A stretch of 63,091 bases of DNA, the filler included. It is 7 parts of 7 records of this genome, joined end to end, with 100 filler letters (N's around TTAATTAATTAA, not from the genome) between each part and the next. Parts side by side here need not be neighbours in the genome. Positions count along the whole stretch, not along the records: positions 26,584 to 37,992 come from SRR20825014_24; 6 more parts are not named here. The stretch is one strand, 5' to 3'. A program made the position numbers and the translations under genes. The notes under the pieces are model-generated. The model searched no databases, was not told where the DNA came from, and saw only the letters and a program-made list of their open reading frames with translations. This document shows positions 11,176 through 63,091 of this stretch, in pieces; the stretch's first letter is position 1, and every line of letters starts with the position of its first letter.

Positions 11176-13188
11176 ATGAAACCCACACGCTCACGCCGCA
11201 TGCGCCGCTGGCTAGTTGCCATTGTCGCTCTCATTGTTATCGCCGCCCTGATTCATACCGCCTGGCCGTTTCTGTTTTTCCCCCGTCAGCAGGTCGATAT
11301 CCACCTTAACGAACCGCTTGCGCCCAACCGGGCCAACACTGCTGTGGCGGGTATTGCCGAACGGGACATTACGCCGCCAACAGGAATACCCAAGTTTGGC
11401 TATTCCGCCTGGGCCAAGGTTGCTGACGGCTTTCGCACCCGCTTGAAAGCGCGAGCGTTTTATCTGCATGCTCCCGGGCAGACGCCCATGGCCATTGTGC
11501 AACTGGACCTGGGCACCGGCTCCCTGCCCCTTCACCATCGCGTGGCAGAGCGCATCGCAGAGAAAACCGATGTACCCGCCCACGCCTTGTCCTTACTGGT
11601 GACTCATACCCATTCCGGCCCGGGGCAGTATCTGGGCAGTGACTTCTATAATGTCTTTGGCAGCAACAAACCCGGTTTCGACCCAGCATTGTTTGAATAC
11701 CTGAGCGAACAGATTGCCGACGCGGTAATCGCGGCTTATTCATCCCGGCAGGAAGCCCGCTTCGCCGTCGGCCAAAGCGACATCCGGGGCTATACCCGTA
11801 ACCGTTCCATGGGCGCCTGGGCGAACAATTTCCCTGACGGCCAGCATCTGGATGACGACCCGATGATGGCGGTCAACCCCACCATGACCTTGCTGCGCAT
11901 CGACCAGAAGCAAGGTGACCGCTTTGTTCCTGCCGGTGCGCTTAGCCTGTACTCCATTCATGGCACCGCCATTCCCCCCTTTACCCGCCCTTACCACGCC
12001 GACGTCTGGCACTGGATCAGTGGCACTCTGGAAGACGAACTTGCAGGCACAGCCCCCGGCTTTATCCATGGCGCAGCCCAGGCCACCCACGCCGACAATA
12101 ATCCGGCCTGGCACACAGACCAGCGTGGCGACCTGGAAGCGCAGCGTATCGGCATAGCCCTGGGCGAACACGCCATCCAATTGTTTCACTCACTGGACGG
12201 GCAGCTCACTAACAAACTGGACACCGCCGTCGCCAGCCGCCAATTGAACCTGCTGGACCAGATCGACACAGGGCGTTTCGGGCTCTGTGAGCGTGCCATT
12301 GCCGGGGCCGCCGTCGCGGGGGCCGCCAATGGCGATGAAGTGTTTCCTATTTCCTACTTGCCCTTTCTCAAGGAAGACTGGCCTCGACGCTTTTTCACCG
12401 ACAACTGCCAGGGCGTAAAGCAGTGGATGCTGTCCAAGTTGCAACTGCTGTTACCCGCGGAACGCTTCCCTCATCAGGCCTTGTTCCAGATCGTACGGAT
12501 CAACGATCTGGTCATCGTGCCGCTGCCCTGGGAAATCACCCTGGAAAGCGGCAATCGCCTGCGCAATGCGGTTACCGAAACCTTGCCCGCCGACACCCAT
12601 TGGAAAGTAGAAGTCTCCAGCCTGGCCAACGGCTATTTCGGCTATGCCGTCACCCCCGAGGAATACCAGCGGCAATACTACGAAGGTGGCCACACGCTCT
12701 ATGGGCCCCATACGCTGGATTTTCTGATTGCCCAGAGCAGCGAGCTGAGCCGCGACCTGCAACGAACCGGGGACATTAACGACATTCCCCGCAAGCAGAC
12801 CTTCTCCCTGCTTTCGCATCAGTACTTTCCAGAAGCACAGCAAACGGCAGCCCCGGTCTCTCCCACGGCTGTCCAGTGGCAAGGTCATCCGGCCCACGAG
12901 CCCGGCGACCCCACCACCGGCCCTTACTGGCGCATGTCCCTGCTGGCCGCCCCCGCCGAACACCTGGCGCTCGACACGCTGGAGCTTGCTATTGACTGCC
13001 GGGGGCAGCTCGCAGCCACTGATGACGGCGCCGCGTTGCAACTGCAATGGCAGGAACAACAAAACAGCCAGGACAAATACGAGGTGCGCTGGTATCCCGC
13101 TCCCGGGCAGCCACAAACAGGCTGTCGTTTTGCTTTTTCAGCCGACCCGGCCGCAGCTCCGGCACAGCACTCCCCGGCGATTCCCTAA
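11176..13188 (+). CDS. Neutral/alkaline ceramidase family protein
   Basis: N-terminal TM helix; DITP, RLKARAF, THTHSGP, IHGT, NGY.GY..T.EEY..Q.YEG..TLYGP motifs. Confidence 0.88.
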   Translation: MKPTRSRRMRRWLVAIVALIVIAALIHTAWPFLFFPRQQVDIHLNEPLAPNRANTAVAGIAERDITPPTGIPKFGYSAWAKVADGFRTRLKARAFYLHAPGQTPMAIVQLDLGTGSLPLHHRVAERIAEKTDVPAHALSLLVTHTHSGPGQYLGSDFYNVFGSNKPGFDPALFEYLSEQIADAVIAAYSSRQEARFAVGQSDIRGYTRNRSMGAWANNFPDGQHLDDDPMMAVNPTMTLLRIDQKQGDRFVPAGALSLYSIHGTAIPPFTRPYHADVWHWISGTLEDELAGTAPGFIHGAAQATHADNNPAWHTDQRGDLEAQRIGIALGEHAIQLFHSLDGQLTNKLDTAVASRQLNLLDQIDTGRFGLCERAIAGAAVAGAANGDEVFPISYLPFLKEDWPRRFFTDNCQGVKQWMLSKLQLLLPAERFPHQALFQIVRINDLVIVPLPWEITLESGNRLRNAVTETLPADTHWKVEVSSLANGYFGYAVTPEEYQRQYYEGGHTLYGPHTLDFLIAQSSELSRDLQRTGDINDIPRKQTFSLLSHQYFPEAQQTAAPVSPTAVQWQGHPAHEPGDPTTGPYWRMSLLAAPAEHLALDTLELAIDCRGQLAATDDGAALQLQWQEQQNSQDKYEVRWYPAPGQPQTGCRFAFSADPAAAPAQHSPAIP

Positions 13189-16501: not shown

Positions 16502-17004
16502 AGGAAGGATTGTATAAAATCGACCACATCGGGAGCATTGGGACCCTTCCTGGACGTAGAGGATACGTCGTGTTGTTTGTTAGTAGATAATCCTGTAGTA
16601 GCAGTAGTAAGTCTGGAGGGGGTACTGGGGTATTTAGTGGTACGAGGGGTGAGGGGGGATCCAGGGAGTGGGGGGCCAATGAGTCGTATCTCGGCATCAT
16701 TGTTAAACACGTCATCGGGGAAGGTGCTCTTGATCACACTAAGGATGCGGTGCTCTTTGAGGGCCCTGAGGCGTGCCTTATCGGTAAGCTCCGAGGTGGG
16801 CTGGGTGCTTGTGGCCATATTTTCCGATAGTAGATCAAATAACCGCCTTCTCTCATCTTCCTCGACTATCATCTCCTCCGCACGTCTCTCTAGTTCGTTG
16901 AGCTTCTCCTCGTCCATGACATAGACATCATTGGTAGCAGGCTGATGGTGTGATCCACCACCTCCCCAACGTACCTTGGAGGAGCCTTGCACTTCGTTAT
17001 ACAT
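16502..17004 (-). CDS. Eukaryotic hypothetical protein, 3'-truncated
   Basis: ATG at 17004, open to the contig edge; charged helix followed by a low-complexity S/T/P region. Confidence 0.6.
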
Positions 17005-17258
17005 TTAATAATAATAAATATAACGAAGTCGACGTTGAATGGAAATGTGTAACGGGCCTTGAATCAATAGAATGTAAGTTGAAAGTGGGGGATTATTAAA
17101 ATGTGCAAACCCATTAAAGTAGCATTTGAAAACAAGACCGCATAACACGCCAACAAAAAGGAGAGAATTTTGAGAGAGGGATTGTGTAGCTAATGTGTTT
17201 CGTTGTTGTTGTTTACTTACCTATATATTGTGTGTTTTTTTTTTGTCTAGTAGCCTTC

Positions 17259-20147
17259 TTACGATGAGAACTCGTTGTCGAGGAATCCACGCTGGGCGTC
17301 CCTCTTACGTGCCTCCTGTGAGGATCCCTCCGCCTCAGCCTTCACCTCATCTCCACTGTTATTACCGTGGATGTATAGCTGGGTGGGAGACACGAACATG
17401 GTCTTGGACTTGAGTTCGCGGTACTTTTTGTACAGGTCAGCGCTGGTGGATTCAATACGGCCGTAGTCGATAAGGGACTGCATAGCACGGGTCTGGCCAG
17501 AGGGGTTACGGACCTTAACCTCAACGGTAGGCCAGAACTCGGGGCCAAGGGTAGCCTTGCGGGCCTCGGCCAGCACCTCCTGCATCTTCATATTGCCGTA
17601 ATTTTGATTATCGGCACGATCCTCGAAGCGATCGCTATCCAACATAACATTGTCCATGCCGACCTTATCCCCAGCCACAACTCGCAATCTCCTCTCGGTC
17701 TGCATATTACCATAGGCGGCGGTGCCCTCGTGGTTGAGGACACGGAGGTCGCTAAGGCGCATTTTGATGGAGACGTTACGGTGGTGGATATCCTGCATAC
17801 GCTGGTACCAACCCTGTGGGTCGTAGCGCTTGTACTGCTGCACGTCGTACACCTCGGACTGACCTACCTCCACTGGGACATTCTGATGCTTAGCCTCAGA
17901 GGACACCTCTCCTAGCCTTCCGCGGAGGTTCCTCTTCAGCACCGACTGGGACGATTGGGGGACGTAGTTAAGACGAAGTAGGATGTTGAGAGCATTGGAC
18001 ATGATGGTTAGATTGCCCTTGGGGTCCTCGGGGGTGGGAGGCTCATCGGCGACGATTCCTTGGTTTACCCAGTTCATGTTCTCTCTTGAGACCTGATGGA
18101 GTGACTGGCGGAGTACCTCCTCCGTAACCGCAGGGGCCTGAGGTGTGCCCAGTGCTGCCTCATCGGTGGTGGGGGCATCCTTGGTCATAGCATGTAGCTT
18201 ACCGACCACATCGACGCCACAATCCTCGAGGATCTCGAGAGTTGCGTCCAATGTGCTGGGACTACGGAGATTCTGATCAATGGTGCTGCGGATACGACGC
18301 TGCTCCACCTTACGGCTCTGGCGTTGGGAGACGATGCCCATCATGGCGGTCTTGACGGCCTCGTTGAGGATGGAGGTGCTGTTGGGGAGCGTGTAGGCGG
18401 AGGGCATCTTGATCTTGCTAGCGGCGTCGGCATCGGCGGCATCCTCCTTCGAGGCTACGACCCTAAGGTAGGCGTTGATGGCCTGTGCGCTCTCCTTGAC
18501 CAGCTTAGAAGCGTCCTCGGGACGTGCGCAGAGATCGTCGACCCTGAAGAGAATTTCGCAGAACTCGGCATGGTACCCCGCCCAACCCTTATCCGGCAGG
18601 ACCTTGAAGTGATCAATATTTGTTAGCCCGAACGCATTTGTGAAGGTGGATGCGGTATCCTGCTCGGTTTTAGCGTGCTCACCAACTGTGAGACAGAACG
18701 CCCTAGCAGCGTCCTCGTCCTTGAGGAGGTTTGCCAAATGACCGACTTCCCTACGAAGGATGTCACCCGACATGTGAGCCGATGTGGCTACCATCTCCAC
18801 CGCAGAGGCCATCTCACGATGACCTGCCTTCTCAAGGGCCTTCTTGAGCTTCATTGCCGACTCGTAGTCACTGCATAGCGCATCAGTGGAACTGATGACG
18901 AACTCCCTACGCCTTTCCATGCTAATTCCGTAAAGGGGGTTGACGCTCTCAAGTGTCATGGACTGATTACGTACATCGGCCAAGGAGCCAGTGGCACCCG
19001 CAGCGGCGGCAGTGGCGCTTGAGAGAGAGATGGCGGAGAGGATGAGGTAGATGGCGACGGCGGGGGTTACAGCGGGGGCAGTACGGCCGTGGTTCTTCAT
19101 CCACTCAAGTTTTGTCAGGAGCACCTCGTCGCTACCGATGATCTTATCGTGATTGGCCTCGATGTGAGCGAGGAGGCACTTCCACACGCCATTACCGCCA
19201 TCGAGGATGTTCCTCAATGCGGCCCTACTTTGGGCATCCGATCCACCACAGCATGGCTGCATGATGTGCTCATCTACTAGGGAGTTACGACGATCGAGGA
19301 CAGCTCTGGTGATGACGTCGATAATATCGGTGAACTCCTCGGGGACCTCATCAGATGCATCCGCAACGGCGCCATCGGATCCAGCAGCCGAGTTCATAAT
19401 CTCGTGAGCGACCTTGACACACCCATCCCGACACTTTCCAATATCCCGGAGGAAAGCATTGGGGTCGAACAGATTCAGGGACACCTTAGAGAAGGCGTCG
19501 GTGGCCTTCTTCCATGAGGCACATGCAACGTCCACGGATGGGTTTCCAATGGACATACACACCTCCTTAATACCGTCAGTAGTGAAGGCCTTCATGCGCT
19601 TCTCGGCATCAGCGTGTTTGGGGAGTGGCAGCTCGATCTTGAGGTGTTCGTTGATGTAGAGGCCGAGGACAGTAGTGTGGGTAACATTGGTGGGGGAGGC
19701 ACGGGATTGGGTTCCCTCGGAGTAGGAGGTCTCCTCCAGCCATGCAGCTATCTTACGAGTGCTGCCTGGTAGCTGCTCCACGTCGTCCTTGGTGAGATGT
19801 AGGGTGTGGGAGGCACCGTTGGAGTCGCTGGATAGGACAGAACTGGTGGGGTCCTTTAGGGGCATGTTGGGGAGGGTGTGGACATAGGGGTCCTTATCAC
19901 TGGTACCCTGACCACGACCTGCACCACTGACAAAGAAGTCTGCAGCAGGAGCGGAGGGCTTGTAGCGAGAGAAGGGGTTATTGAACCCTGGCTCCATGGA
20001 CTGGAGGCCACCGCCCTGGGTGAGGGTGGTGAGGTCGGGGCGTTGGACATGGGAGCGGGTAGCAGCCACCTTAATAATAGATGGCGATGAGCCAGCGGCC
20101 ATGGTGGAGCCTGCAACCACGCACTGCTGTGAGTATCCACGGATCAT
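17259..20147 (-). CDS. Large intronless eukaryotic protein of about 962 aa, possibly mitochondrially targeted (kinetoplastid-like)
   Basis: Long ORF; the MIRGYSQ... start is preceded by AG and a polypyrimidine tract; the N-terminus is Ser/Ala/Arg-rich and lacks acidic residues; no domain recognised. Confidence 0.75.
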   Translation of the reverse strand: MIRGYSQQCVVAGSTMAAGSSPSIIKVAATRSHVQRPDLTTLTQGGGLQSMEPGFNNPFSRYKPSAPAADFFVSGAGRGQGTSDKDPYVHTLPNMPLKDPTSSVLSSDSNGASHTLHLTKDDVEQLPGSTRKIAAWLEETSYSEGTQSRASPTNVTHTTVLGLYINEHLKIELPLPKHADAEKRMKAFTTDGIKEVCMSIGNPSVDVACASWKKATDAFSKVSLNLFDPNAFLRDIGKCRDGCVKVAHEIMNSAAGSDGAVADASDEVPEEFTDIIDVITRAVLDRRNSLVDEHIMQPCCGGSDAQSRAALRNILDGGNGVWKCLLAHIEANHDKIIGSDEVLLTKLEWMKNHGRTAPAVTPAVAIYLILSAISLSSATAAAAGATGSLADVRNQSMTLESVNPLYGISMERRREFVISSTDALCSDYESAMKLKKALEKAGHREMASAVEMVATSAHMSGDILRREVGHLANLLKDEDAARAFCLTVGEHAKTEQDTASTFTNAFGLTNIDHFKVLPDKGWAGYHAEFCEILFRVDDLCARPEDASKLVKESAQAINAYLRVVASKEDAADADAASKIKMPSAYTLPNSTSILNEAVKTAMMGIVSQRQSRKVEQRRIRSTIDQNLRSPSTLDATLEILEDCGVDVVGKLHAMTKDAPTTDEAALGTPQAPAVTEEVLRQSLHQVSRENMNWVNQGIVADEPPTPEDPKGNLTIMSNALNILLRLNYVPQSSQSVLKRNLRGRLGEVSSEAKHQNVPVEVGQSEVYDVQQYKRYDPQGWYQRMQDIHHRNVSIKMRLSDLRVLNHEGTAAYGNMQTERRLRVVAGDKVGMDNVMLDSDRFEDRADNQNYGNMKMQEVLAEARKATLGPEFWPTVEVKVRNPSGQTRAMQSLIDYGRIESTSADLYKKYRELKSKTMFVSPTQLYIHGNNSGDEVKAEAEGSSQEARKRDAQRGFLDNEFSS

Positions 20148-20235
20148 TTCTAATTTATTATTTTGAAAATAGAAGCGCGGGGTCCTAACTTTGAAAAGAG
20201 GTGAGTTAGAGGGGAAAGGAATAGCAGAGGTGGTG
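20148..20235 (-). promoter_or_regulatory. Putative polypyrimidine tract and AG trans-splice acceptor
   Basis: Minus strand ctctgctattcctttcccctctaactcacctcttttc ... ttagaaATG; a similar tract (cccctctctcaaaattctctccttttt) lies near 17155-17180, upstream of the next gene. Confidence 0.5.
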
Positions 20236-20756
20236 ATAAATTCAAAAAAGACATTGTTGTGTAACAATGTCAAGCGATGGTTGCGATAATTTTGTGTTTG
20301 TGTGACAAGGGTAATAATACGCAACTACAGTTGAATACAATCATGGTGGTGGTGGGGTCCTCTCTCATCATGGATGTTTACAATTTTAAAGTCGATTCGA
20401 TTGACGACAACAAAGATATAAGCAAACACCAATCATGTAGAAAGGAGAGTGAAGTGGAAGAGGTAATGTGGGGAGAGTACAGTAGTAGAAAGGGTACCAG
20501 TGATATAACGGCGCGAGGTGGTGCTGACCTTCATAGTGATGAGGGCAAAAAAATATATAAAAGTGTGGGGAAATCGATGGGGTGGTGTTTTTTTTACAAC
20601 AGCACCTGCCCTGCTAACAATGTCAACCTCATCCAGTAAGGAGTGACGATGATATCNNNNNNNNNNNNNNNNNNNNNNNNNNNNNNNNNNNNNNNNNNNN
20701 TTAATTAATTAANNNNNNNNNNNNNNNNNNNNNNNNNNNNNNNNNNNNNNNNNNNN

Positions 20757-26483: not shown

Positions 26484-26589
26484 NNNNNNNNNNNNNNNNN
26501 NNNNNNNNNNNNNNNNNNNNNNNNNNNTTAATTAATTAANNNNNNNNNNNNNNNNNNNNNNNNNNNNNNNNNNNNNNNNNNNNGAGAAA

Positions 26590-26609
26590 TTTTCCCGACG
26601 GGAAGTTTC
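26590..26609 (+). repeat. Left terminal inverted repeat of the AT-rich contig
   Basis: ttttcccgacgggaagtttc is the exact reverse complement of 37973-37992. Confidence 0.92.
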
Positions 26610-26739
26610 ACGTATATCTTACGTACATAAATTTTATGCGTAACTTACAGAAGACATGCCGGAATATATTTACATTACATGTATATACACGTACATAGTA
26701 TGTAAGTAAATAATGTAACATCATACATCGTACGTTTGC

Positions 26740-29700
26740 GGGTATATACTTTATCGTTGTTGTGGTTTTGCATACATGCATAAATTACACCTACTCAGGA
26801 AAGGTGTACATGTATCATATATACACATTATAACCTACACTCTTTTATTAGTTTAATGTGTACTGTCTTATCAAGTATACTACCCCTGTGGGCACCTTTC
26901 CAAACATCCCCCTGTCAGCAATGAAGTATACTCCGCTTACGGTCAGACATGTAACATATTTCGGGGTGCTCCCACAGAAATGTACTTGACCACATCACCA
27001 CTACAAGGAATAACCGTAATGATATTTCTGACATGCACGGTATACTTATAAGTACTCGTGCATACCCTAGGAGTTTTGTTTTTACTTGTTGTGTGGTGTT
27101 AAGCACATCCTCCCGCACCGTTACATGGAAAGGTGTATGCACAGTAGGTATATAACACCTTACACGCGACATGTAATGCTGTGTTCCGCGCAAAACCCCG
27201 GTATGTGTAAAACGTAATATTATGTTGGAACACCTATTTTTTCTAATTGTAACGTACCGTGCCACATATGTATTAGTTACGTATAGCTAGTTTGTTGTTG
27301 TTGTACGTAGCTGATACAATTGCGGTAAATCCTGGAAAGGTGTACCTGGTAACAACCTACGCGGAGTGTGCTATAATAACATTACTGATAATATGTATAC
27401 TACACGTTCGTAATATTATGTGAACAACCATGTGAGTATGTTAGGTGTACGGTCGCGTGCAACATACTCATACCTATAGGAATACCCGGGTGTACTTACG
27501 TATCGTATTAACTTATAATTTTCATCCGTTGTTTTGTTTTGGTTTTGTGTATAATAATATCTGTGTCTCGGGAAAGGTGTGTATCATTACCGATGTATAT
27601 ATGTGTACCCTATTGTTACGAACCCCTGTACGCAGTAGATAAGATTACGTAATCCCGTCGGGTGGGGTGTAAGTAACTGCAGTTCTTTGCGAGATTGCGT
27701 GTATCGCCTCGTACGTACTGTATTATCTTTACTTGTGGCAAGTTATATAAAATTAAAAAACACCTTTCCGAGTAACACTTGTAACAAGCTTTTATAAAAC
27801 ACAACAAACTTAACAAAAAAATTTGTATGTGAATCATGTACAACTTGTATCCGCCTACAGTGCTTACACAGTAAATAACGGAATAACGGCCCGTGTATTA
27901 CAATACCTGTGGGATATTACGTTAAATTAAAATTAGACCTGGCTTATATTTCTGTAAGTTACGTCCGCTTACATGTATGTATGTACATATTTGTAGGTGC
28001 ACGCTATCAATCGATACGTATACTGGAGCGGTGTTTACACAATACGTTGTGGGTTTACCGGGGGCAGTACACTCGTATAATCACATACACAACTTCATCA
28101 TACGACCGCGTGTACGTGTACCGTTATATCACAGGTGCTACCGCGGAGTTGTATACGTAATACGTTAAACATTCATCATGTTTGTAATGCTGTGTTTTGT
28201 TTTGTATACGTATACCTACATGCTGCATTTTATAGGAAAGGTGAATACTTATACGAAATGTACTGATCCGCATATTGTGTTATATGTTGTTTATTAATTG
28301 GTAGGTTTTTTCTGCTGGTGGATAACATTTAACATAAGGAAAGGTGTGCATGTACGCAGTGCAATAACCCACGTAAGATGTAGTTTAGTTTGGCTTTGTA
28401 TAGTATTACTTTAAAAAAAACTAAACACGGAAAGGTGTGTACTACATGCGCACACTACACGGACATACGTAAAGGTATAATTCCAAGTACAAGTTGGATA
28501 CGTAACATACTACGTAACCGAAGTTACATATATTTCTGGGAGGGGTATACGAATCCGGATCTTATAAAAAATAAAACCCGCTAGTATTATCTGACAGTAC
28601 ACGGGTAGATTAAAACTACGTAGGCTAATCCCATCGTGTATTACGTAATGATAATATCCGCGTATAACAGCATACGTAATAATGGTACGCCCTAAATAGA
28701 TTACGTTCAGATAGGAACATCTACGTGAAACTACGTAGTAGACGTTACCGTGCATGTTACTGATACGTTGTTAGCTTAATACTATGTGTGTTTGTTTTCT
28801 CGCGGCAGCGCATTACACTATATTTAACATGTACATGCTGGAAAGGTGTAAACATGTCGTGAAGATGTATTTTAATATGCACTTTTAATACGTTAATAAC
28901 GTACCTGTACGTAAAGCGGGCGTATGTATGTCATGCACGGTACGTTGTCATTATTACATGTTGTGCACGATAGTGTACGTATATAATTACACCTACAACG
29001 TAGGGAAAGGTGCAGTTAATAACATTATATAATTTGTTACTACTCCGCGTGGTGGTTATGTGTTTCTGTATGTAGTGACTGCATGCACTCCCTGGCCTGA
29101 CATTGTGCACCCACTGGTAAAGGATGTACTTTCATAATTTTTGGTTGTTGCGTGTACTTGTGTAGTCATAAACGCTTTAGGAAAGGTGTACGTACATCCC
29201 CATATATGTATGTGGTTACACATCCGCGGAAGGAACCACCCATGTTTTGTAATGATAAGTACACACCTTTCCAATGCTCGCGGTCTACATCAGAAAACAT
29301 ATCCCATACACAAATACAAGTAACATTTCTCACAGTGCATGTGTTGTATTTTTGGCAAGGTTCGTGTATTACTATTTGTCATATAACAGACGTATGTCAT
29401 TACAAAATTTACGGGTATTCAACGTATTACAATGTAACAAGCATTAGTGACTTACCCCGTGTTGTAAGTATGCGTATCCTGTTTATACGTACGTGTAGCA
29501 GTAGTACACCTACACTACCTCAGGTATACTGGTGTTATATAAAGTACATTTTTTACGGGGAGAAGCTCCCTAATATAGTTAAGGACGTTATGTCTTACCC
29601 CGCATGTACATAATATACACGTAGACACCTTTCCATGTAGTACAGGTAAGGTTCGGATTACGTATCTCATACACAAATAATAAAATAAATTAATTTTTAA

Positions 29701-32700
29701 CGACTGTACGTAAAAGTAGTACACATTGTATACGTCGCAGGACTGTGTATAATCCACGACAAAACATTACGCGACATAATATTCGGGGATGGACAGACCT
29801 GGAGAAGGTATGCCATACCAGCACGTATTAAATACGCGAGATGTACTACGTTTACATGTCTATAGAACTATTACGTGCAGGTACTATCAAGACCATGTAC
29901 ACACCTTTCCACAACGGCCTGGTGTGCATGGTATATACACATCCCAAAATAATAATGTACTACGTAAAATATAGACACACATAATAACTGTATGTCGTAG
30001 GAACAACGCTAATCGTACACATTGTTTTTTCAAATCGGAGAACACCTATTACAAGAGAGGTTATATAATATATGCACCGTATACACAACACTGCACGGCA
30101 GGCGATTTCTTTCCGTGTAAGTTGTTGTTGTTGTTCTATAATTACGTGTGCGTATTAAGCTTTATTGGAAAGGTGTACCCGCGTACAAACGCTACCCCAG
30201 TATACATGTATACATGTTCCTTGTAATACTCAACCATAAATAATTATTTTTAATTTTTTGTGGGAAGGGACTAACCATATTACACTACCCGGAAAGGTGT
30301 ATGAGTGCGCTTATGGGATGTGACGGGATTCACCCCGTAAATACATTAAAATCGGATTTGTGTAATACACATATAATAAAATACCGGTATGCAGTATTTG
30401 TAAGTACGTGGTACATACACTTTTTTATGTTTTGTGGGTGTATACCAATAACACATGGTGTTAACGCTGATGCCGGAAAGGTACATACACGTATCGTAAT
30501 CTTGTATATGGCATAACCCACGAATGTGTAATAACATATACCTGTATGCGTACACTGCTACACCTTTCCGGTAAGTAAAAACATCCCCATCTAGTATACT
30601 GCTACGCAATAAAATAAACGTAAATCTATGTACCGCGCAGTACGATTAATTCTCCATCTGTAGGTAGCTGAGATCATGTTCTGCATGTTTTACATTTAAT
30701 ACTCCTCCGTGTACACGCATACCTGTGGGGGGGCACACCTGTCCAGGAAGACTTACTACTGGGTATAGCATCATCCCAACCACAAAAAGTAAATGAAGTA
30801 TCATAGTTTACACCTGGGTAACATGTTGTTATTCCGTGTAAGTGCATCACATAATACGTCCTTTTATTTACGTGGTATATGTATATATATATATACGAGT
30901 ACATTACACGGATACGCGTAAAATGAAAGTAGTATAATAATACTATTGCCCGATACGCTACACTGTTGCTATCCTTAAACAGGTTATTATTAATTTATTT
31001 TATTTATACTAGACATGTACTTTTTGGAATCCTACCCTGGAAAGGTGTTTTTTATATGTTCACTCTAAAATAGCAGACTGTGTGTAAGTATATATTGACA
31101 CAGTATATAACTATACTAACAGCACTACACGATCACCAACAAGGCGTGACGCCACGTAGTGAGGGTAAGATATATTACGTGTGCAACGTAAGGAAAAAGT
31201 AACTTACATCTTACAAAATACACGGATTATAATATACCTGTATGACAGAAAACACCTATTGTGTAACTTTTGTGTTTTGTTCGTTTTTATTGTTTTTTAA
31301 TATCACACTATAACCCGGGAAAGGTGTATTCACATCCGGTGTTGTATGCTACGATCGCAGTACATGTAAACCAATACGCACGTAGTATATGTAACAGCGT
31401 AGTGTTGTTGTTTATACGCGTGTAGCCTAGTGCACGGCCGGCATGTTGTTTCAGATGAAACGCCCCGGACGGACATATCGTAACCTTTAACTGGTAAGTG
31501 CATGTAGCAATACTTAAACTCTATACAGTAAGTATATGTACACTGTACAACCTATCAAGGGTTAATACATGGTCTGGGTAAGCAGGTTCATATTAACAGT
31601 GTATACCGAGATGTATTCTACACGTGATTTTGTTTTGTTGTTGTAATCATTGCTGACGTATTGGTACAGTGTCCTAGGAAAGGTGTAACGCGTGAGGATG
31701 CATCACCACAGATTACGTCCTACACGTGTATAGAATATAGCTGTAAAACTAACCCGTTCCCGTACGTGGTACAACCTTCATAACATAATGCCGTCAGGCG
31801 TGTAATATGTACATGGACATACATTTACTTTTTTGTTTGTTTTTGTATATGTAACCCCACTCAGTATTACATCCCACTGGAAAGGTGTTGTATCACTACA
31901 CAATACGTGTATACGTAGTTTTCGTGTTATAACCGTATCACCGTAACCCCTCGTAAAAACGTATATAAAATACATGTAAGTACACTTGGTTGTTTAGTCT
32001 TTCCGGAGAGTTACCTGTTGCGGTAAGGCCCTCCTGAGAAAAAAAAACACACCATGAACTGTATACATGTATGTTACACACGCTTACACAGTAACTGTAC
32101 AACCCACTCATAATCGTTTATGTACTGGTTTAATAACCACACCTTTCCTATACGCGGTAAACGTTGATATATCCTATACAAAACATAAACAAATAAAAGT
32201 TATAACAAACCTTAATGGTGAAGGCATGTTACCCTATACATGTGCACATGGTGACGTATATAAAACATAATGCTACATTACATGTATGGCACATCGGTAA
32301 AATCAGTTACAATGGTCGTACACGTGTACTTACACGTATATGTACATAGCATCGTGTATGGTTATGCATGTACGGGGATTAAAGTATACTACACGCATTA
32401 CGAGATTAATAAAATTAACATATACGTAAAGTTATATTTTCTTTTTTATTTTTTTGTGTGCGTGTAATATTAATGTAGTTTACCCCGGAAAGGTGTGTAC
32501 GTTGATGATGATACTGTGTACCTAGTATAACACCTTTCCGTGGGTATGTAGTAACTGTATTTACCATTAAACGTCAACTCACATGGATGAACCCCGTAAG
32601 CCTTATCCCGTGTATTTTCATACGTAGTAATATTTGTACATGGAATATATTTACCGTTACGGACGTAGTACGTGCACCACCGTATATATGTCCCCGGGTA

Positions 32701-35700
32701 CACCTTACACATAGGGTTTAATATGTGTACGGTACGTGTTAATTACAAAAGGCGTATGTATCGTATTATTACTAAGTTGTACACCATATGTATAGTACGT
32801 TAAACATTACATACTTTGTTGTAAATTTTTAATACTGGTAACATTTCATACACGCTGGAAAGGTGATCCGACTTAAAAGTTTCAGATTTATGGTTGCTTT
32901 ACGTACATGGTATGTCTTACACAGGGTGTAAGTACACGTACTTAAAAATAAAGTAAACACCAGATACTAAATATGTAACCGCTATCCCATAGGTTTGTAT
33001 TAACTACGATCCCGGTTTTTTTTGTTGCAGTATGTAACAGTGTTGTTGGCCTAACCAGTAGGAAAGGTGTGGTATATACGCGAGGCTTATCTGATAGTAA
33101 CACATTGCATAACATACGTTTAGTTGCATTAATCCTATACGGGTGGGGTATAAAACGTGCCCGGTACCACCTACCAGCAAGACGTACCGTTTTTATGTAC
33201 CTCGTGGATGACGTTAATAGTTTATATGTTTTTGTGTATGGTGTGTATGTGTATTACCACGTAGCATATACTAAGGAAAGGTGTGTACTCGCATAGTTAT
33301 ATCCATAGTTGACTTAGCGGTATGTATTACATACTCCCCGGGTAGTGCATAACAAATACATATTGAATTGCAGTTACTTTGTCGGTGTTATTTTTTGATG
33401 TGTACGTACTTAATATAACATACTAGGAAAGGTGTAATGGTTGTATATGTAATTAATGATTACTCCTGGAGGATATACACATACACTAGAAATCCATATA
33501 GGAGTGTACAACACACGGTGTATATCTTACCGTCTATAGGCTTACGTACGGGGTAGTATACACACAATAAAAACGGTGTAACAGCCCGGTAGTACGTAGG
33601 TTGGTTACCCTATAAACATACATACCCTGTATTTGAAGTACATTATATTAGACGTTGTAACTTTCCGGTTATATACACGTATGGTATAACATAAATCCGT
33701 AATGAATATTTGTAATGCTTTCCAGGTGGTACTGTTGTGCATAAATGGCATTTTTGGAAATGCTCCCCACACCTTTCCTAGCAAAACTATAAAATACGGT
33801 ATAAAAAATCTGCAACAAAATGAAGCCATCTATACACGCTGCTTGTACATGTACGTGCAACTATCCGGTAAAGACAGGCAACATCTGTCCGAATGGCTAT
33901 ATGATTGCGTTGTGTGTTGGCACACCTTTCCGGGGTAATTCCTGAATGTTTGTGTATATGCTACGCATAATATTAGGCACAGTAACGTGCAAGGTATGTT
34001 CCATTTACACAGCGGGTATTGCTTGCTATGCGGCGTGTAACATGTTACCAGTATACATGTCTTTACGCACGGGGGGGTGTGCACATACACCAGTGAGGTT
34101 ATTACGTTCTCTGTAGGAACGACATGTTACATTTTATACCGGGGTGTATACCACGACCGGATGTGGTTTTACGGGAAAGGTGTTGTGCACGATTTATGTT
34201 GGCAAGTACTATGTTAACCGTATTACTGGTATTTGTTTATTGTTATGTGAGAATTGTATATTCACTTTTCCCGGAAAGGTGTATTCCGTGCATGCATCGT
34301 AACACATTATGGCTATTGTGGAGGGCTGCCCCCGGGATTACGGTATGTATTTATATGCGTGCGGTGTGTACCTTATGCCTACGTGTGGTGTGTTTTTTTG
34401 TATTTACAACTGGTGTAATACATACATCCTGGAAAGGTGTATTACACGTTAATGGAAACGTTTTGTGTAAACCGGGATTAGTACTGTATACACAGGTATG
34501 TTGTAACTTGTATCCGTTACATGTATGCTATAAGAGTACTTAACGTAGCGCGGTGATTACTACCGGTTATACGGGGGTTATACACCTTTCCAGGATGTAT
34601 GCGGTTTATCCCCTTATAGCGCAAAACGAAAACTAAACTAAATCAGTATAATGTAAAACTTGCTGAACAACGCATATCTAATAGTGATGTGTAAACGTCA
34701 TACCATGTCTGTGTATGCACTGTGTCGCATGTGGTCTCTACAACATATCGAGTAGTACTACCCCTGAAAGTCATTACATCTCGGGGACCATATAGGTAAT
34801 TTTACGTATATATAGCCCCATGTGATACACCCTAGTACGCTTACGGTGATACTTCTAACGAGTACGGGGTAACTATACGTAACTATACGACCGTGTATTG
34901 CACATCGTGTGAAGGCCATAATGTAAACGTACTGTTACATGTATTACTGTTTTTGTTTGGTGCAGTACTATAACAGTATGAGTTTAACAGGAGCGGTGTA
35001 GGTGTAAGTACACTACCCTATGTAATGGCTCTTACACACCTTTCCGGTAAAATGCATGTAGTTGCGTCTACACCAAAAACTATAAAATAACAATTAACTT
35101 CCGGTGACCGTCTATCCGTGGGATACACTTCCCTGTTAGATCTTACACAAGCATATATTGCATACATATGCAACACGGTTTTCCCAGGTATGTTTAGTTG
35201 TGGTTCTGCGTATATGGCTTGTAAAGTACAAAACACACATACGTATGTATTAAGTGTAACGGATTACACCTTTCCAGTGGGAGGGGCTATGTCTTACGTG
35301 GTATGTTATCCTTCAAAAAAATGAAACTTAATCTGTACACAGCAGATACCTGTATAAAGGTTTATCCTGTAAATGGCAACTATCCCCCGGGTGGCTTACG
35401 TCATTACATGTGTGCATGTAGGGGAGTACCATACAACCTCGGAAAGGTGTACACACACAGGGGGTGACACACGCACAGCAAACACAGAAATTGCTGGTCG
35501 TCGTAAGACACGTACTGGTGAGGACGTAATTTACATATGTGGTAGGGTCGTTGTCATTATCTAGTACATGTGTGGAAGCTTGTATACACAATCCGTAGGA
35601 ACAATCCTGTAGTATACATTTATCTCCCCGGGAAAAAACACCTTTCCCGTATATTGATAATACTGAGTACATCGTTACACCTCACCATCAAAAAAATTAT

Positions 35701-37890
35701 ATGTGGGTATTAAACATGTCGTTTTGGGTAATATGTCAACATGACCCTGGTAAACACCTTTCCAGGGGATTGTTATTATACGTCACCTGTAGTCATACAA
35801 AACACAAGAAACATGTATACTAATTTATTGTATTTACATGCAACAAGTATGTTTACGTTAATAGCACACAACGTAATATCCGTTGTAAGCAGGTAATGCA
35901 CGCGGTATTAATACAGTATTAGTTGCACACGTAGCAATGGATAATAACATACTGGTCGCATATACAGATAGGTTACACCTTTCCTAAACAGTGTTGATGT
36001 ATAAAGCCCTACAAAAAAACAACAAATATAAATTTGTAAGCGCTCATAAAAGTATACCACTACTGTACCCCGCATTAACTACGTACAAAGCATTACACAT
36101 TGTTGGTGGGAGTCTGGTTTTACTTTACGTTTTTTGGTGTTGTGTTATACGTGTATACTTCGATTACGCGGGAAAGGTGTACTTTATTCATGTCAAGCAG
36201 TATGCATAATATAATTATAACCCAACAGGCCACGCACCTTTCCTGATAAATGTAACGTATGTAACCTACAAGAATCCTTCAAAATAACAAAATCAAATTT
36301 ATATATGGTTATAGTGAGAACGCGGTAACGTTAACATTAGGTTGTTATACATATACGAAACACACATATTACGGGCCTGCGTAGTTCACGCGCGGTATCT
36401 TCCACGTCTGTAACACATGCTCGGCTATGTATTAACGGACTGTTGTATACTGTAATTCCTATAGATACAGTACATATTACTTAACTATACTTTTTTGGTA
36501 AGGCGCTCCTCACGGAAAAACCATGCATCTAAAATTCCACGGGATCGCGTACGTGTAAACCCGCGTATATACGTGCATGTGAATAAATAAGTACGTACAT
36601 AAACATATACACCTTTCCTATATTAAACGATGTAGTATGTTACGACTAACAAACAACAACAAAATAAGCAAGCTTACAAGTGGTAATACTTTACTACACA
36701 AGGTACGATATGCGTGTCGTGTCATGTACATATATCGTACATCACGTAGTTTGTAGTAGTGTGTAACGGAACCCCACAATAAGGGGATGTACTCATATAC
36801 ATGCACCGGGTATGTAAGCAAGGTTATACTACCCATACTCTACAGTACTGGATCAGGCATTACAGTTATCCTATGTAATGTTTTTATTTTATTTTTCTGC
36901 GAAGCAGGCCTGTCTGTACATACCTACATTTATAGGAAAGGTGTAGTGGTGTTCCGTAACATATATATATATTATATACATCTTTCCTACTATACGAGGA
37001 GATGTGTAACCGCACCATAACAAAACAATAAAAAAAATGGAAACACGTAATAGGTGAGTGTTAACCCGTTTACAATAATATGTTCGTGTAAGTGGGTAAC
37101 AAAAGATATATTCTTGTAATGAAGAAATACATACATAAAAGTTCTGTGATGGTTCACTACATAATACCGTACAGGGTTACACGTACCAGAATAGAACTTG
37201 TTCGTTACATAAGTTATGATTGTCATACGTATAACAGGTTATTGACCATTGTTATTTAAGAAGGACGTCCACCTGATGGAGTAACCTCCACCTTGTGAGC
37301 ATACCTATACATAGCGATATGTTTCTGTAAGACAAGTTTGTTACTGATGTTTATATAGGCGTTGTGTGCACTTGTCATGTAACGTAAGTATTTACCCTTA
37401 CGTTAACAACATACCGGTATGTACCGCACCTTTCCTATGTATGTACGTGATTACCGCCTAACATAATGACACATAAAATACCTATAGTAAAGTGCAGTAC
37501 CCGGTTATGCGCACATGATCAGGATTAATGCCGTTAGCTTGTTACCAACGTTCATGTGTCGCTACCGTACACGGACACGTGCTTATACGTTAGTAACAAA
37601 AAGTTTTATGCCATGTTATTTTTTTGTAATGTGCAAGTAAAGTAGGCTTCGCTTGGAAAGGTATAAGTTAATACTACAGGTATGTGTTCTGTATTGCATG
37701 TATACTACAGGTTGATACCTACCTACGTATACACCTTTCCTATGTTTAACGTAACACACGCATATACGAAAAATCCGGGAAACATAGACTATAATATACG
37801 TTGGGTGTAATGACATGCATACATAAACTTTTTTGATAACAATTTTATGAATATAATATGACCCTATATTGTTACACCGTGGAAAGGTCA
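26740..37890. repeat. Dispersed array of about 50 GGAAAGGTGT/ACACCTTTCC cassettes (putative guide-RNA genes)
   Basis: Manual count of about 50 exact or near-exact copies. Plus strand examples: 26798, 27127, 27334, 27571, 28338, 28429, 30291, 33061, 34431, 36171. Minus strand examples: 27760, 29263, 29901, 32139, 34582, 35975, 37731. Most have a unique T/G tract about 20-35 nt 5' of GGAAAGG. The repeat itself is certain; the gRNA role is inferred. Confidence 0.85.
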
Positions 37891-37914
37891 CATCAACAAG
37901 GTGAGCAATGTTGT

Positions 37915-37992
37915 GAAAACTTCCCGACGAAAAACTTCCCACGAAGTTTGGGAAACTTCCCGCGAAATTCGGGAAACTTCCCGTCGGGAAAA
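37915..37992 (+). repeat. Degenerate tandem GAAACTTCCC repeats, including the right terminal inverted repeat (37973-37992)
   Basis: gaaaacttcccgac-gaaaaacttcccac-gaagtttgg-gaaacttcccgc-gaaattcgg-gaaacttcccgtcgggaaaa. Confidence 0.9.
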
Positions 37993-60573: not shown

Positions 60574-60675
60574 NNNNNNNNNNNNNNNNNNNNNNNNNNN
60601 NNNNNNNNNNNNNNNNNTTAATTAATTAANNNNNNNNNNNNNNNNNNNNNNNNNNNNNNNNNNNNNNNNNNNNAT

Positions 60676-63090
60676 GGGTTCGTTGCGGCTGTTACCTACC
60701 TCACAGATCAATCTCACGTCAACGTTTTCAACTCATCTACTGTGAAGTTGTCGGGAAACTTGATTGATCGGATAACAATGTCGGCAGGGATAGATCACTC
60801 CAAAGGCCGCTTTGTCTTCATACTAGGACTCATGGCAAGCTCAACCTACACCATACAACGGAACTCATCTATCGGCATAATCAACAATGCAATCACGGCA
60901 ACAAATATCACTCGTCTTGGAAATGTGGTGAGGGTCATGATTTTGTACGGGGAGTACTGCACACAGCTGGTTGAGGACGGGGGCTCGTTACTAAATATAT
61001 CTCAAAACAGCATATCCACTACCACAACAACAAGTAATTTCCCGAGCCACATAATTGCCATCGTATCGATAATTCTCTCGTTTTTATCTGCGAATGGAGA
61101 TGCTGTTATTATTGTGGGGGGTAATAATATTAGTAGCGCCATGTTTCACCCATGTTCCAGCACTGCCACCGATATTATCTACGTAAATGTTGTGCTTTGC
61201 GAGTCCACTCCGTTGAAGATTTGGAACAACTCTACAGTAGAAATAGTTGATAATATCGTCGTTCAAACTGTTGACTTTCAACTTCCATCATTTGGTAGTG
61301 AGGGATCGTGCAAGATTTCAACAATTATTGATGTACTGGCTCGTATCGGAGGCGGGATTGAGCTCGCCAACAGCTCTTACCTTAGTATATCTAGAAATAA
61401 AGATCAGATAACCACCACGTCTGACCTAGCTCCTCCTCCACCTTCTACCCCAGTTGCCTATCCGCTGCACGACATGCTATTCGCCACCCTCCAACTAAGC
61501 GACCTGACAATCTATGCCAACAGTTGGTTAGAGGTGAGCAACAACAACGCAAGCATAACAAGCATGGAACTCCGAGCAAATGATATTGCCGCAATTCGGT
61601 TCAATTCGATGGTTGTCCACTCTGAAAGCTCCCTCAGCATTGTGGGAAATCAACTCCACGAAACTTTCACAAATGGGCGATCTCAGTACATGACGACGCT
61701 AAGATTTATGATTGTGACTGGTGGGTCTACTGTTGTCATTGGGGACACCTCCTGCGTTAACGTTTCTTCAAATACTCACACACACACAGCCTCACAGAGT
61801 CCATATGGTTTGTTTTTGTTCGATTCGACCTTTCTACAGATCGGCACCCCACTTATGGACATCTTCAACACATCGTCGCTTTTGATAGGGCACAATATAT
61901 TAGACGGGAATTTCGATGAGAGCGGAGGAGTCGCACGATTCGTCATTTTCCTTCAGAGGGTAAACGTAGCTATTGGATCTAGTATCAGTATTGTCAACAC
62001 AACCATGCGTATGAGTGGACCGTTGCAGACGACACTTTTGTCGATTATCCATGGAGCTCGTTTAGTGCTAGAACAAGGGGGTACACGGGGGGACACAGTT
62101 GCCCATGAAGCTGCTAGAGCAATATCATTTATTACCATTCAAGGTAACAGCGTTCATATATCAGTACAAAACAACAACAATCACAAAGGACCCTCGCCAA
62201 ACTTGCTATCTGGTGTTGTTTTGTTTTTTGACGCAGCAGCTTCAATCATGGGTCCGTTGGGGACGTACCCGACGATACAATTCAGAGTAGCTGACAATAA
62301 CTTCACGCTAGTTGCAGAAGTAGACACTCGCACCTTTACCGCAGCAAAGACTAACTCAATCTTCATTTTACTTTCAGAGAAAGTAGATTGGGAATTAGAT
62401 GGGGGGGCATTAATGATAGAAGGAAACCACTTCACTAGTAGCATTTCATTCATTCGATGTGGGGGAGGAGAAGGAAGCTCGGCTGACAACTTCACAAATA
62501 AGTTCATCGTATCGACAACTATGGTGTATTCTGGTGTTGTGACGGGGCTGGGTGGTGTTGTATCTGTCAGTGGCAATACGATGGTATCTAACCTTCAAAT
62601 TACTTACTTATCAGCGCCAAACACCACCAGTGGCTTTATTCCATTTTATTCCACGCAGTCCCTTGTGTTGCTGGCGACAAACGTCCTACTGGGGGCTTCA
62701 AGTGGTGTCTACATCGAAAGTAATAATGTACATCTCACAACCACCTCCCCCTCAGACCCCTTTGGTTTTCCAGGGAAACTGATGACGGTCGGGAGCAGTC
62801 TACTTTTCACGATGTTCCTCTTCACCACACACACCCTCCACATTGATGGTAACGACTACACGTGGAGGGGTACGTGCCGTACATGTGGTGGTGTAGTAAT
62901 ACGTAAAGTATCCCCACCCTCGAACACCTCCTTATCAACAACAACAATAACACATTACAAATATATCATTTCAAATTGCAAATTTGATATCTATGCTGAT
63001 CAACCAACTGCAGTGGACTTTTTAGAAGAAGGTGGGTTATTGGGAGGTTTACTTCTCCTCAGCGTTGTTAATGACATGAAAAAAGTCGAG
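60676..63090 (+). CDS. Fragment (805 codons, open at both ends) of a large beta-helix-like eukaryotic surface protein
   Basis: Frame +1 read by hand has no stop. Recurring S-x-(L/I/V)-x-(I/V)-x-x-N turns: STVKLSGN, SSIGIINN, SLLNISQN, STVEIVDN, SYLSISRN, SWLEVSNN, SSLSIVGN. Many N-x-S/T sequons. Confidence 0.85.
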
Positions 63091-63091
63091 G

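Follow-up and report, generated by a model that had tools for sequence, protein, structure and literature searches.

The window analyzed here, a stretch of 63,091 nucleotides, is not one piece of DNA but a concatenation of seven contigs, with runs of N around the word ttaattaattaa as joints. One of these contigs, of 11409 bp (the target contig), carries an array of small oriented units, termed cassettes, and is bounded by a terminal inverted repeat. It belongs to a family of molecules that have their ends and the design of their units in common, and the core of the units is selectively conserved within this family; these features are observed directly. From them, and by analogy with known systems, we infer the organism, the transcription of the units and its strand, their targets, editing, and the topology of the molecule. 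The reading that we favor, at a probability of roughly 0.55, is that the target contig represents a guide-RNA-bearing mitochondrial (kinetoplast-type) chromosome of an uncultured euglenozoan, for which the guide-RNA molecules of Trypanoplasma borreli would be the nearest counterpart.

26584..37992, strand unassigned: whole target contig, 11409 bp, with N spacers on both sides (an N run at 26540-26583 precedes it)

Design and conservation of the cassette units

The target contig is filled with oriented units that follow a single plan.

26748..37889, both strands: array of 50 oriented units, 29 on the plus and 21 on the minus strand, with a median spacing of 204 bp (range 45-493)

Each unit consists, in order, of a T/G-rich core of 24 nt at positions -50 to -27, a variable spacer of about 20 nt, a G-free stretch at -7 to -1, and then the cassette motif GGAAAGGT(G)T(A/G), which can also be written GGAAAGGTGT(A/G). 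The word GGAAAGGTG occurs in the target contig 47 times exactly and 53 times with at most one mismatch, and the count for the entire window is 67, against 12.8 expected; the shorter form GGAAAGGT occurs 50 times. The mean T+G content of the cores is 0.76, compared with 0.51 for the contig as a whole.

Relatives of the target contig were sought with an 18-mer of its terminal repeat in 185,579 species genomes and in a metagenome collection. The species genomes returned 26 loci with at most one cassette motif each, and the three that were inspected are ordinary high-GC DNA; given the scarcity of motifs and the high-GC context, all 26 were taken as chance matches. Among the 40 loci from the metagenome collection, nine are relatives, namely eight loci from seven contigs of one open-ocean sample plus one locus from another sample, L028; the remaining 31 contain no cassette motif. 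In the eight marine loci the GC content is 37-39% and the number of cassette motifs ranges from 11 to 49, the five loci of more than 8 kb having 39-49 apiece; L028 lacks the motif and contains five terminal words. The three largest marine contigs measure 11233, 11211, and 12073 bp, as against 11409 bp for the target. What the marine contigs have in common with the target is the terminal blocks, in inverted arrangement, and the unit design; they share no unique sequence with it.

A positional profile was compiled from 275 units on eight contigs, aligned on the motif. Units were selected by their motif, so that the finding lies in where the core sits: in all 275 aligned units it occupies a fixed -50 to -27 ahead of the invariant GGAAAGGTG. 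At positions -44 to -30 of the profile, T accounts for 55-66%, G for 14-32%, and C for no more than 11% (no more than 6% at -42 to -35), and beyond the T/G tract the composition returns to background on both sides.

Cores recur between units whose surroundings are unrelated. Over positions -56 to -22 of 290 units, 53 pairs have a common 14-mer and 17 a common 16-mer, the corresponding means being 2.4 and 0.3 after shuffling of bases and 9.4 and 1.0 after shuffling that preserves columns; the control stretch at -130 to -96 gives two pairs and none, respectively. Common 12-mers peak at start positions -50 to -31, with 825 and 426 per 10-nt bin versus 59-137 elsewhere. The recurrence extends across the family, as the 50 target units and 240 marine units form 14 pairs with a common 14-mer (1.86 when shuffled) and seven with a common 16-mer (0.26 when shuffled), and neither kind of pair is found between the same units at -100 to -66. 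The flanks around a core common to two units are unrelated, including the 20-25 nt that lead from core to motif. Five units of the target serve as examples.

31627..31685, plus strand: unit with a core identical over 18 of 18 nt to that of a unit on marine L047, flanks unrelated
33225..33283, plus strand: unit with a core identical over 17 of 17 nt to that of a unit on L058
29130..29188, plus strand: unit with a core identical over 16 of 16 nt to that of a unit on L029
35038..35095, minus strand: unit with a core identical over 17 of 17 nt to that of a unit on L058
37428..37485, minus strand: unit with a core identical over 16 of 16 nt to that of a unit on L045

Even decay from a common ancestor would not give such a pattern. 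What the pattern indicates is selection, acting at a fixed distance from the motif on a sequence of about 16-24 nt (or as much as about 30 nt), and it has the look that would be expected of many small genes aimed at common targets. Neither strand of the units is unusually structured (145 units, mean z of about -0.6), which is what linear guides would show.

Two further features of the array were observed. Some motifs face one another and form local inverted repeats, as at 34421-34445 and 34577-34601 (25 nt, 96% complementarity, 131 nt apart); further facing pairs lie at 32487-32539 and 36171-36243. The region between facing motifs (35-190 nt) is devoid of a T/G core, and on an antisense reading these would be divergent promoter pairs. 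In addition, the cores at 33011-33033, 34381-34403, 35302-35325, 35674-35697, and 37605-37627 each consist of a run of 7-8 T between ordinary sequence, and such cores resemble the U-appendage junctions of diplonemids as much as they do multi-site insertion in kinetoplastids.

The target contig is mis-binned and foreign to the bacterium of its bin. Its GC content is 38% overall and 36-41% along its length, and that of most neighboring contigs is 55-65%. In G001, the nearest complete bacterial genome compared (4.3 Mb, 100% complete, 1% contaminated), positions 29000-35000 of the window have no match and the paired-motif pattern has 0 instances; the adjoining contig at 38093-44000 matches G001 at 98% over its entire length. 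The longest open reading frame (ORF) of the target contig under translation table 11 is 153 amino acids (aa). Translation with mitochondrial code 4 yields 99 frames of 50 aa or more between stops, and none of the 60 longest reaches the Pfam cut-off, a search that modules shorter than about 50 aa would escape. The Rfam search of the contig gave no match at E values up to 0.1, and the transfer RNA (tRNA) search found none. The contig is likewise unmatched among plasmid and phage records, and viral contigs, scanned twice, returned 0 and 0 matches. In practical terms the target contig is contamination, to be taken out of the bacterial genome bin.

Terminal repeats, constant region, and assembly breaks

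The 20-mer TTTTCCCGACGGGAAGTTTC is present exactly at 26590-26609 on the plus strand and at 37973-37992 on the minus strand. These are its only matches in the window, even with up to three mismatches allowed; 0.01 would be expected, and none of 100 shuffles reaches two. The repeat and the elements associated with it are as follows.

26590..26618, plus strand: left arm of the terminal inverted repeat, 29 nt with 90% complementarity, exact over 26590-26609
37964..37992, minus strand: right arm of the terminal inverted repeat, 29 nt with 90% complementarity, exact over 37973-37992
26592..26604, plus strand: hairpin TTCCC-GAC-GGGAA in the left arm, with its mirror at 37978-37990, paired in minimum-free-energy DNA folds
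37916..37983, plus strand: degenerate tandem block of four AAACTTCCC copies, with periods of 15 and 21

Six bases (GAGAAA) separate the contig start at 26584 from the left arm, and the right arm is the contig end. Read from outside to inside, the left arm is a single copy of the terminal block of the family. AAACTTCCC occurs five times in the window, on the plus strand at 37917, 37932, 37953, and 37974 and on the minus strand at 26600, within the left arm; 0.45 occurrences are expected, and 0 of 100 shuffles reach five. Tandem Repeats Finder describes the right-end block as 2.1 copies of period 15 (37916-37945) and 2.5 copies of period 21 (37932-37983, 90% matches, score 83). Folded as single-stranded DNA, the 83 nt at the right end reach -21.4 kcal/mol (z of -4.30), and none of 200 shuffles folds as well. 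A preliminary description of this DNA had pointed to a perfect 20-bp reverse complement at the two contig ends, to a hairpin TTCCC-GAC-GGGAA within the repeat unit, and to four degenerate tandem copies at the right end. All of this is borne out: the repeat is exact and extends to 29 nt at 90%, the hairpin appears in the DNA fold, and AAACTTCCC is present four times on the plus strand at 37917-37982.

The relatives place these elements in a larger context. In a BLAST comparison of the target with its relatives, the best 25 of 43 matches all fall at positions 2-34 and 11323-11408 of the target contig, and the latter segment aligns to the blocks of the relatives at 74-94%. The marine loci L029, L038, and L046, together with L028, have a conserved region of about 480 bp in common, at 80-87% identity. 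The basic tandem element is a unit of 49 nt, present in L028 in 2.5 copies with 98% matches, and the tandem block at the right end of the target is a degenerate, diverged form of this unit. The GAAACTTCCC block and the terminal inverted repeat are the inner edges of a constant region composed of self-complementary tandem units.

The orientation of the blocks was mapped by matching one terminal block, from L045, against all family members. On the target contig this block matches positions 3-25 on the plus strand, at 100%, and positions 11380-11408 on the minus strand. On the 11233-bp marine contig (L045/L046) the left block is on the plus strand and the right end has inner blocks on the minus strand, a core of about 320 nt, and an outer block, again on the minus strand, at the extreme end; the arrangement in L038 is the same. 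As the orientation recurs in both relatives, the inverted blocks are a trait of the family and not an accident of a single assembly.

L028 (2824 bp) has a different order, in which array-like sequence is followed by blocks on the minus strand, about 2 kb of low-complexity DNA, a block on the plus strand, the 320-nt core, further blocks on the plus strand, and again array-like sequence; the array-like flanks measure no more than 100 and 24 nt. Two ends joined through a spacer would be expected to show this order, which favors a circle or concatemer in that relative, a weak hint from one short contig. For the target molecule, a linear form with telomere-like inverted tandem ends and a circular form are both possible.

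The low-complexity part of L028 (positions 100-2340) is homo-oligomeric DNA, with runs of G, C, A, and T, situated between inverted sets of blocks and showing tandem periods of 10-12, 61, and 70; the only Rfam matches in it are far below threshold. The periodicity of A/T versus G/C in the constant regions, the low-complexity DNA of L028 included, peaks at about 11-13 nt and not at 10.5 nt, and no claim of kinetoplast-like bent DNA is made. The dinucleotide bias is nearly identical in the target, L038, and L058, with AC/GT at 1.57-1.58, TA at 1.30-1.36, GA/TC at 0.48-0.50, AG/CT at 0.64-0.66, and CpG, which is not depleted, at 1.17; the spacers have a 'GTA/TAC' look. This bias is a possible handle for the recruitment of further family members from assemblies.

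The nature of the contig ends was examined in sequencing runs. All sampled words of the target contig are present in three runs of one study, half of them in the run of a second study, and 6-9% in runs of four further studies; four runs (X1, X4, X6, and X7) were compared with the contig in detail. In X1, an independent contig of 11480 bp covers all 11408 compared bases of the target with 0 differences and extends 67 nt beyond its right end and 5 nt beyond the first compared base, so that the two X1 assemblies of the target end within about 70 nt of one another. As the independent assembly does not stop at the right end but goes on for another 67 nt, the ends of the contig are breaks in assembly and not the physical ends of a molecule. 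Three more X1 contigs contain the terminal 29 nt (37964-37992): one of 10529 bp and depth 15, at its positions 62-90, one of 75 bp and depth 198, and one of 32 bp and depth 2350. The target contig itself has a depth of 32.4 in this run, and the contrast between 2350 and 32 suggests that there are tens of classes of molecule. Other X1 contigs, of 6.9-10.7 kb, have only about 30 nt around the cassette motif in common with the target.

The preliminary description had proposed that the assembly broke on entering a constant region common to many molecules and inverted at both ends, had asked for coverage to be inspected at both ends, and had held that a repeat unique to this contig at single-copy depth would speak against the proposal. 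The proposal is supported by the excess depth of the end words (2350 versus 32), and the inverted constant region recurs in the 11233-bp marine relative. Summed X1 depth is raised in both end bins (158.6 and 267, versus about 33-70 inside the contig), and the repeat is not unique, with its terminal 29 nt on three more contigs of the run. Short-read assemblers would stop at the terminal region because it is common to all family members.

The pieces matched in X4, X6, and X7, runs of three other studies, are 99-100% identical to the target contig; stretches of the contig left uncovered in these three runs carry no weight. The runs that match the contig include none listed as RNA; the two marked 'RNA?', X6 and X7, contribute 6 and 4 identical pieces of 132-244 nt at a depth of about 2, from which strand, ends, and expression are not readable. 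One and the same non-coding molecule, at 99-100% identity, is found in runs of four studies from 2018-2022, and its unique sequence is absent from the marine relatives. Either a single clonal organism of wide distribution or a companion that keeps turning up with cultures or samples may lie behind this recurrence across studies.

The guide-RNA reading and its alternatives

If the contig is guide-RNA-bearing mitochondrial DNA, the family would consist of AT-rich non-coding molecules of about 11-12 kb, each with a constant region inverted at both assembled ends, for which a role in replication or end maintenance may be proposed. Each of the about 50 units would be a small gene read on the strand opposite the T/G tract, that is, on the A/C-rich strand, as the analogy with T. 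borreli and Perkinsela suggests. The conserved CACCTTTCC element would act as a promoter-proximal signal, and an A/C-rich antisense RNA of about 20-30 nt would start about 17-27 nt downstream of CACCTTTCC. Its partners would be U/G-rich mitochondrial transcripts, bound through Watson-Crick pairs in the manner of U-insertion editing.

Were this reading true, the family would represent a new architecture of guide-RNA DNA in an uncultured protist, with 50 guide-like genes on each 11-kb molecule and a new proximal motif, without wobble and without conserved sequence block 3 (CSB3), and it would widen the range of kinetoplast-type genomes. It would also give lineages that have no known guide RNAs a concrete candidate for them. 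The family occurs in an open-ocean metagenome and the target molecule in sequencing runs of at least four other studies, and the motif with its T/G core, as well as the 49-nt terminal unit, provides a sequence handle for metagenomes. A literature search, with most subscription journals outside its coverage, returned no description of the motif or of arrays of about 11 kb, and the motifs have 0 occurrences in the supplements of four papers, image files and some sequence supplements lying outside that search.

Several observations weigh against the guide-RNA reading. The 12-nt CSB3 (with up to two mismatches) has 12 matches, all scattered inside the arrays, and none in the terminal blocks or the 320-nt core of the constant region, which is only partly assembled. 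The T. borreli motif RYAGGCTTT is absent from the target contig and occurs once elsewhere in the window, which is chance level. The antisense strand of the core is almost devoid of G, and transitions make up only 5 of the 21 mismatches between matching cores, with 10 of the 21 being G/T; owing to this rarity of G and the small number of transitions, the G:U wobble typical of trypanosomatid guides is not evident. Tiling of the shared cores, which measure 13-24 nt, into longer targets failed (the longest common unitig is 20 nt), and the spacer next to the core has background composition, unlike the U-rich anchors to be expected in a pan-editing cascade. A non-kinetoplastid euglenozoan would be equally compatible with the architecture, as diplonemid circles with long unique cassettes are described in passages of PMC7049700.

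In a possible, if doubtful, alternative the molecule could be a mitochondrial chromosome of the diplonemid type, or from a deep sister lineage of the kinetoplastids, that is circular and has constant arms on either side of a long unique 'cassette'. Its units would not be classical U-insertion/deletion guides but something as yet undescribed, for instance guides for U-appendage or for module trans-splicing, or tiny gene pieces. The open-ocean origin of the relatives agrees with this view, the order seen in the bridging contig L028 is compatible with a circle, the lack of CSB3 and of wobble suits a non-kinetoplastid, and the several cores that consist of a T-run of 7-9 between ordinary sequence recall U-appendage junctions. 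Passages of PMC7049700 report cassettes of 3.2-12.3 kbp that occupy 83-90% of the circle in Sulcionema and Artemidia, 16 module-less chromosomes in Sulcionema, and homo-oligomeric repeat motifs around the cassettes of Namystynia. In a marine kinetoplastid-sister cell treated in a part of PMC6792441, the mitochondrial contigs are mostly unique, with short similar regions near their ends and 36% GC. Against the alternative stand the gene modules that diplonemid chromosomes would lead one to expect, of which the 60 longest code-4 frames yield none at the Pfam cut-off. The pertinent passages and supplement of PMC7049700 mention neither guide RNAs nor oriented unit arrays in diplonemids, and the term 'guide RNA' occurs 0 times in the main text of that paper. 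Most diplonemid chromosomes, according to the same passages, are 90-95% constant region, the reverse of the target family.

A related and rather improbable proposal is that the molecules would form a class not described before, organellar 'guide chromosomes' of about 11 kb with about 50 promoter-tagged, Watson-Crick-only guide genes; their source would be an uncultured marine euglenozoan, diplonemid or kinetoplastid-sister, from outside the known kinetoplastids. If it were true, the units would encode the long-sought trans-acting RNAs for module joining and/or U-appendage, or ancestral U-insertion guides.

An origin outside the organelles, in a eukaryote not yet known or in another host, is unlikely; the contig would then be a nuclear or extrachromosomal array of small-RNA genes, a repeat family of satellite type, or a linear replicon resembling a plasmid or virus. 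The terminal inverted repeats, and a size that is uniform at about 11 kb, are in keeping with such an element, no organelle gene is found on any family member, and the non-depleted CpG (1.17) and the dinucleotide bias common to all members do not assign the molecules to a compartment. For a replicon, however, one would look for coding capacity, and there is no ORF longer than 153 aa and no known family for a polymerase, terminal protein, or capsid; the plasmid, phage, and viral-contig searches likewise gave nothing. As for a satellite, a core of 16-24 nt that is under selection and keeps a fixed distance to the motif speaks instead for many small functional genes.

That the array is a genuine accessory element of the binned bacterium, integron-like or CRISPR (clustered regularly interspaced short palindromic repeats)-like, is very unlikely. 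The target does lie in a bacterial bin, in which two other contigs of the window are also without a match in G001. Its GC content, however, is about 20 points below that of the contigs that match G001, no genes were recognized in it by the ORF, Pfam, Rfam, and tRNA searches, and G001 contains neither the target DNA nor the motif pattern. The irregular spacing (45-493 bp), the mixed orientation, and the lack of genes are not those of an integron or a CRISPR array, and the relatives come from a marine sample that has no link to this bacterium.

The two other contigs without a match in G001 are those at 16502-20656 and 60674-63091, and they indicate that the bin contains further accessory or foreign DNA. 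The former carries an ORF of 1021 aa at 17259-20324 on the minus strand and the latter an ORF of 783 aa at 60742-63090 on the plus strand, open at the contig end; neither has a Pfam family at E values up to 0.001.

An artifact (a fold-back chimera, an adapter, or an assembler palindrome) is scarcely credible as the source of the terminal repeat and, although the block is nearly palindromic, strongly self-complementary, and so of a kind prone to strand-switch artifacts, this possibility, which the preliminary description had allowed for, is already contradicted by the second, independent assembly in X1 (0 differences over 11408 bases), by the identical pieces in runs of three other studies, and by the same blocks at the ends of seven marine contigs assembled by others.

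Comparison with diplonemid, minicircle, and T. borreli DNA

As in the diplonemid chromosomes of which PMC7049700 gives partial descriptions, the constant region of the family adjoins a unique region of up to about 12 kb; homo-oligomeric flank motifs, a marine habitat, and the presence of some chromosomes without a recognizable gene are further points in common. The oriented motif-plus-core arrays of the family, and its lack of detected gene modules, set it apart from the diplonemid chromosomes in these accounts.

The family is also reminiscent of trypanosomatid and bodonid minicircles, which passages of PMC4806707, PMC7859406, and PMC9679448 present as heterogeneous, small, high-copy molecules with a conserved region and a variable guide region; the guide-bearing molecules of kinetoplastids range, in the part of PMC7859406 concerned, from 600-bp linear molecules to 2.2-kb circles. 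Here, too, there are many high-copy molecules with a common conserved region (depth 2350 versus 32; seven marine contigs) and a conserved motif at a fixed distance from each guide-like unit. The family departs from the minicircles of these sources in the ten- to fifty-fold larger number of units on each molecule, in the failure to find CSB3, and in the absence of any sign of wobble; the 12-nt CSB3 block is called invariably present in minicircles in a passage of PMC9679448. That the family works like the kinetoplastid minicircle class is supported; membership of the class itself is not established, since CSB3, the T. borreli motif, wobble, and tiled targets all failed to appear. A further difference from minicircles is that the units here have no bracketing inverted repeats and carry a single oriented motif each. 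In Trypanosoma brucei, guide cassettes are flanked by 18-bp inverted repeats. Circles of 10-12 kb have reportedly been found in Bodo caudatus.

In Perkinsela, edited mRNAs have the same U/G-rich texture as the cores of the family, and candidate guides have A-rich or A/C-rich tracts (passages of PMC4669381). As a side observation, the flank common to many of the cox2 guide candidates in supplementary file 3 of PMC4669381, where it is printed 3' to 5', resembles the terminal word (…cgtcgggaaaaa…) of the family. Read 5' to 3' it is a different sequence, and the likeness was set aside as a coincidence of printing direction.

The closest comparison is with T. borreli, in which guide-RNA loci lie on both strands of contigs of about 70 kb with unique inner sequence, according to passages of PMC9679448. 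A 9-nt motif, RYAGGCTTT, is located there 20-40 bp downstream of the mRNA-like match and upstream of the guide locus, and the guides have a median length of 28 bp, G:U pairs at 0.11 per base, and high redundancy. The family differs from the system so described in the size of its molecules (about 11 kb versus about 70 kb) and in the number and density of the units, which is about 50 per molecule, or 4.4 per kb, versus about 23, or 0.3 per kb. Its motif is GGAAAGGTGT / ACACCTTTCC, with RYAGGCTTT absent from the target contig, and a CSB3-like block was not found in its repeats. The likenesses concern the design itself. As in the 'ScaI-flanked' kinetoplast DNA in the same part of PMC9679448, many small loci are spread over the two strands of an inner region that is unique and non-coding, and a conserved motif stands at a fixed short distance from each locus. 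Tandem repeats that are inverse at both ends ('telomeric-like') are described for T. borreli, and the block map reveals the same arrangement in the family. The informative stretches are short in both (a median of 28 bp there, about 20-30 nt here), and low use of G:U pairs and high redundancy are likewise common to the two. In its design the family matches the T. borreli system point by point.

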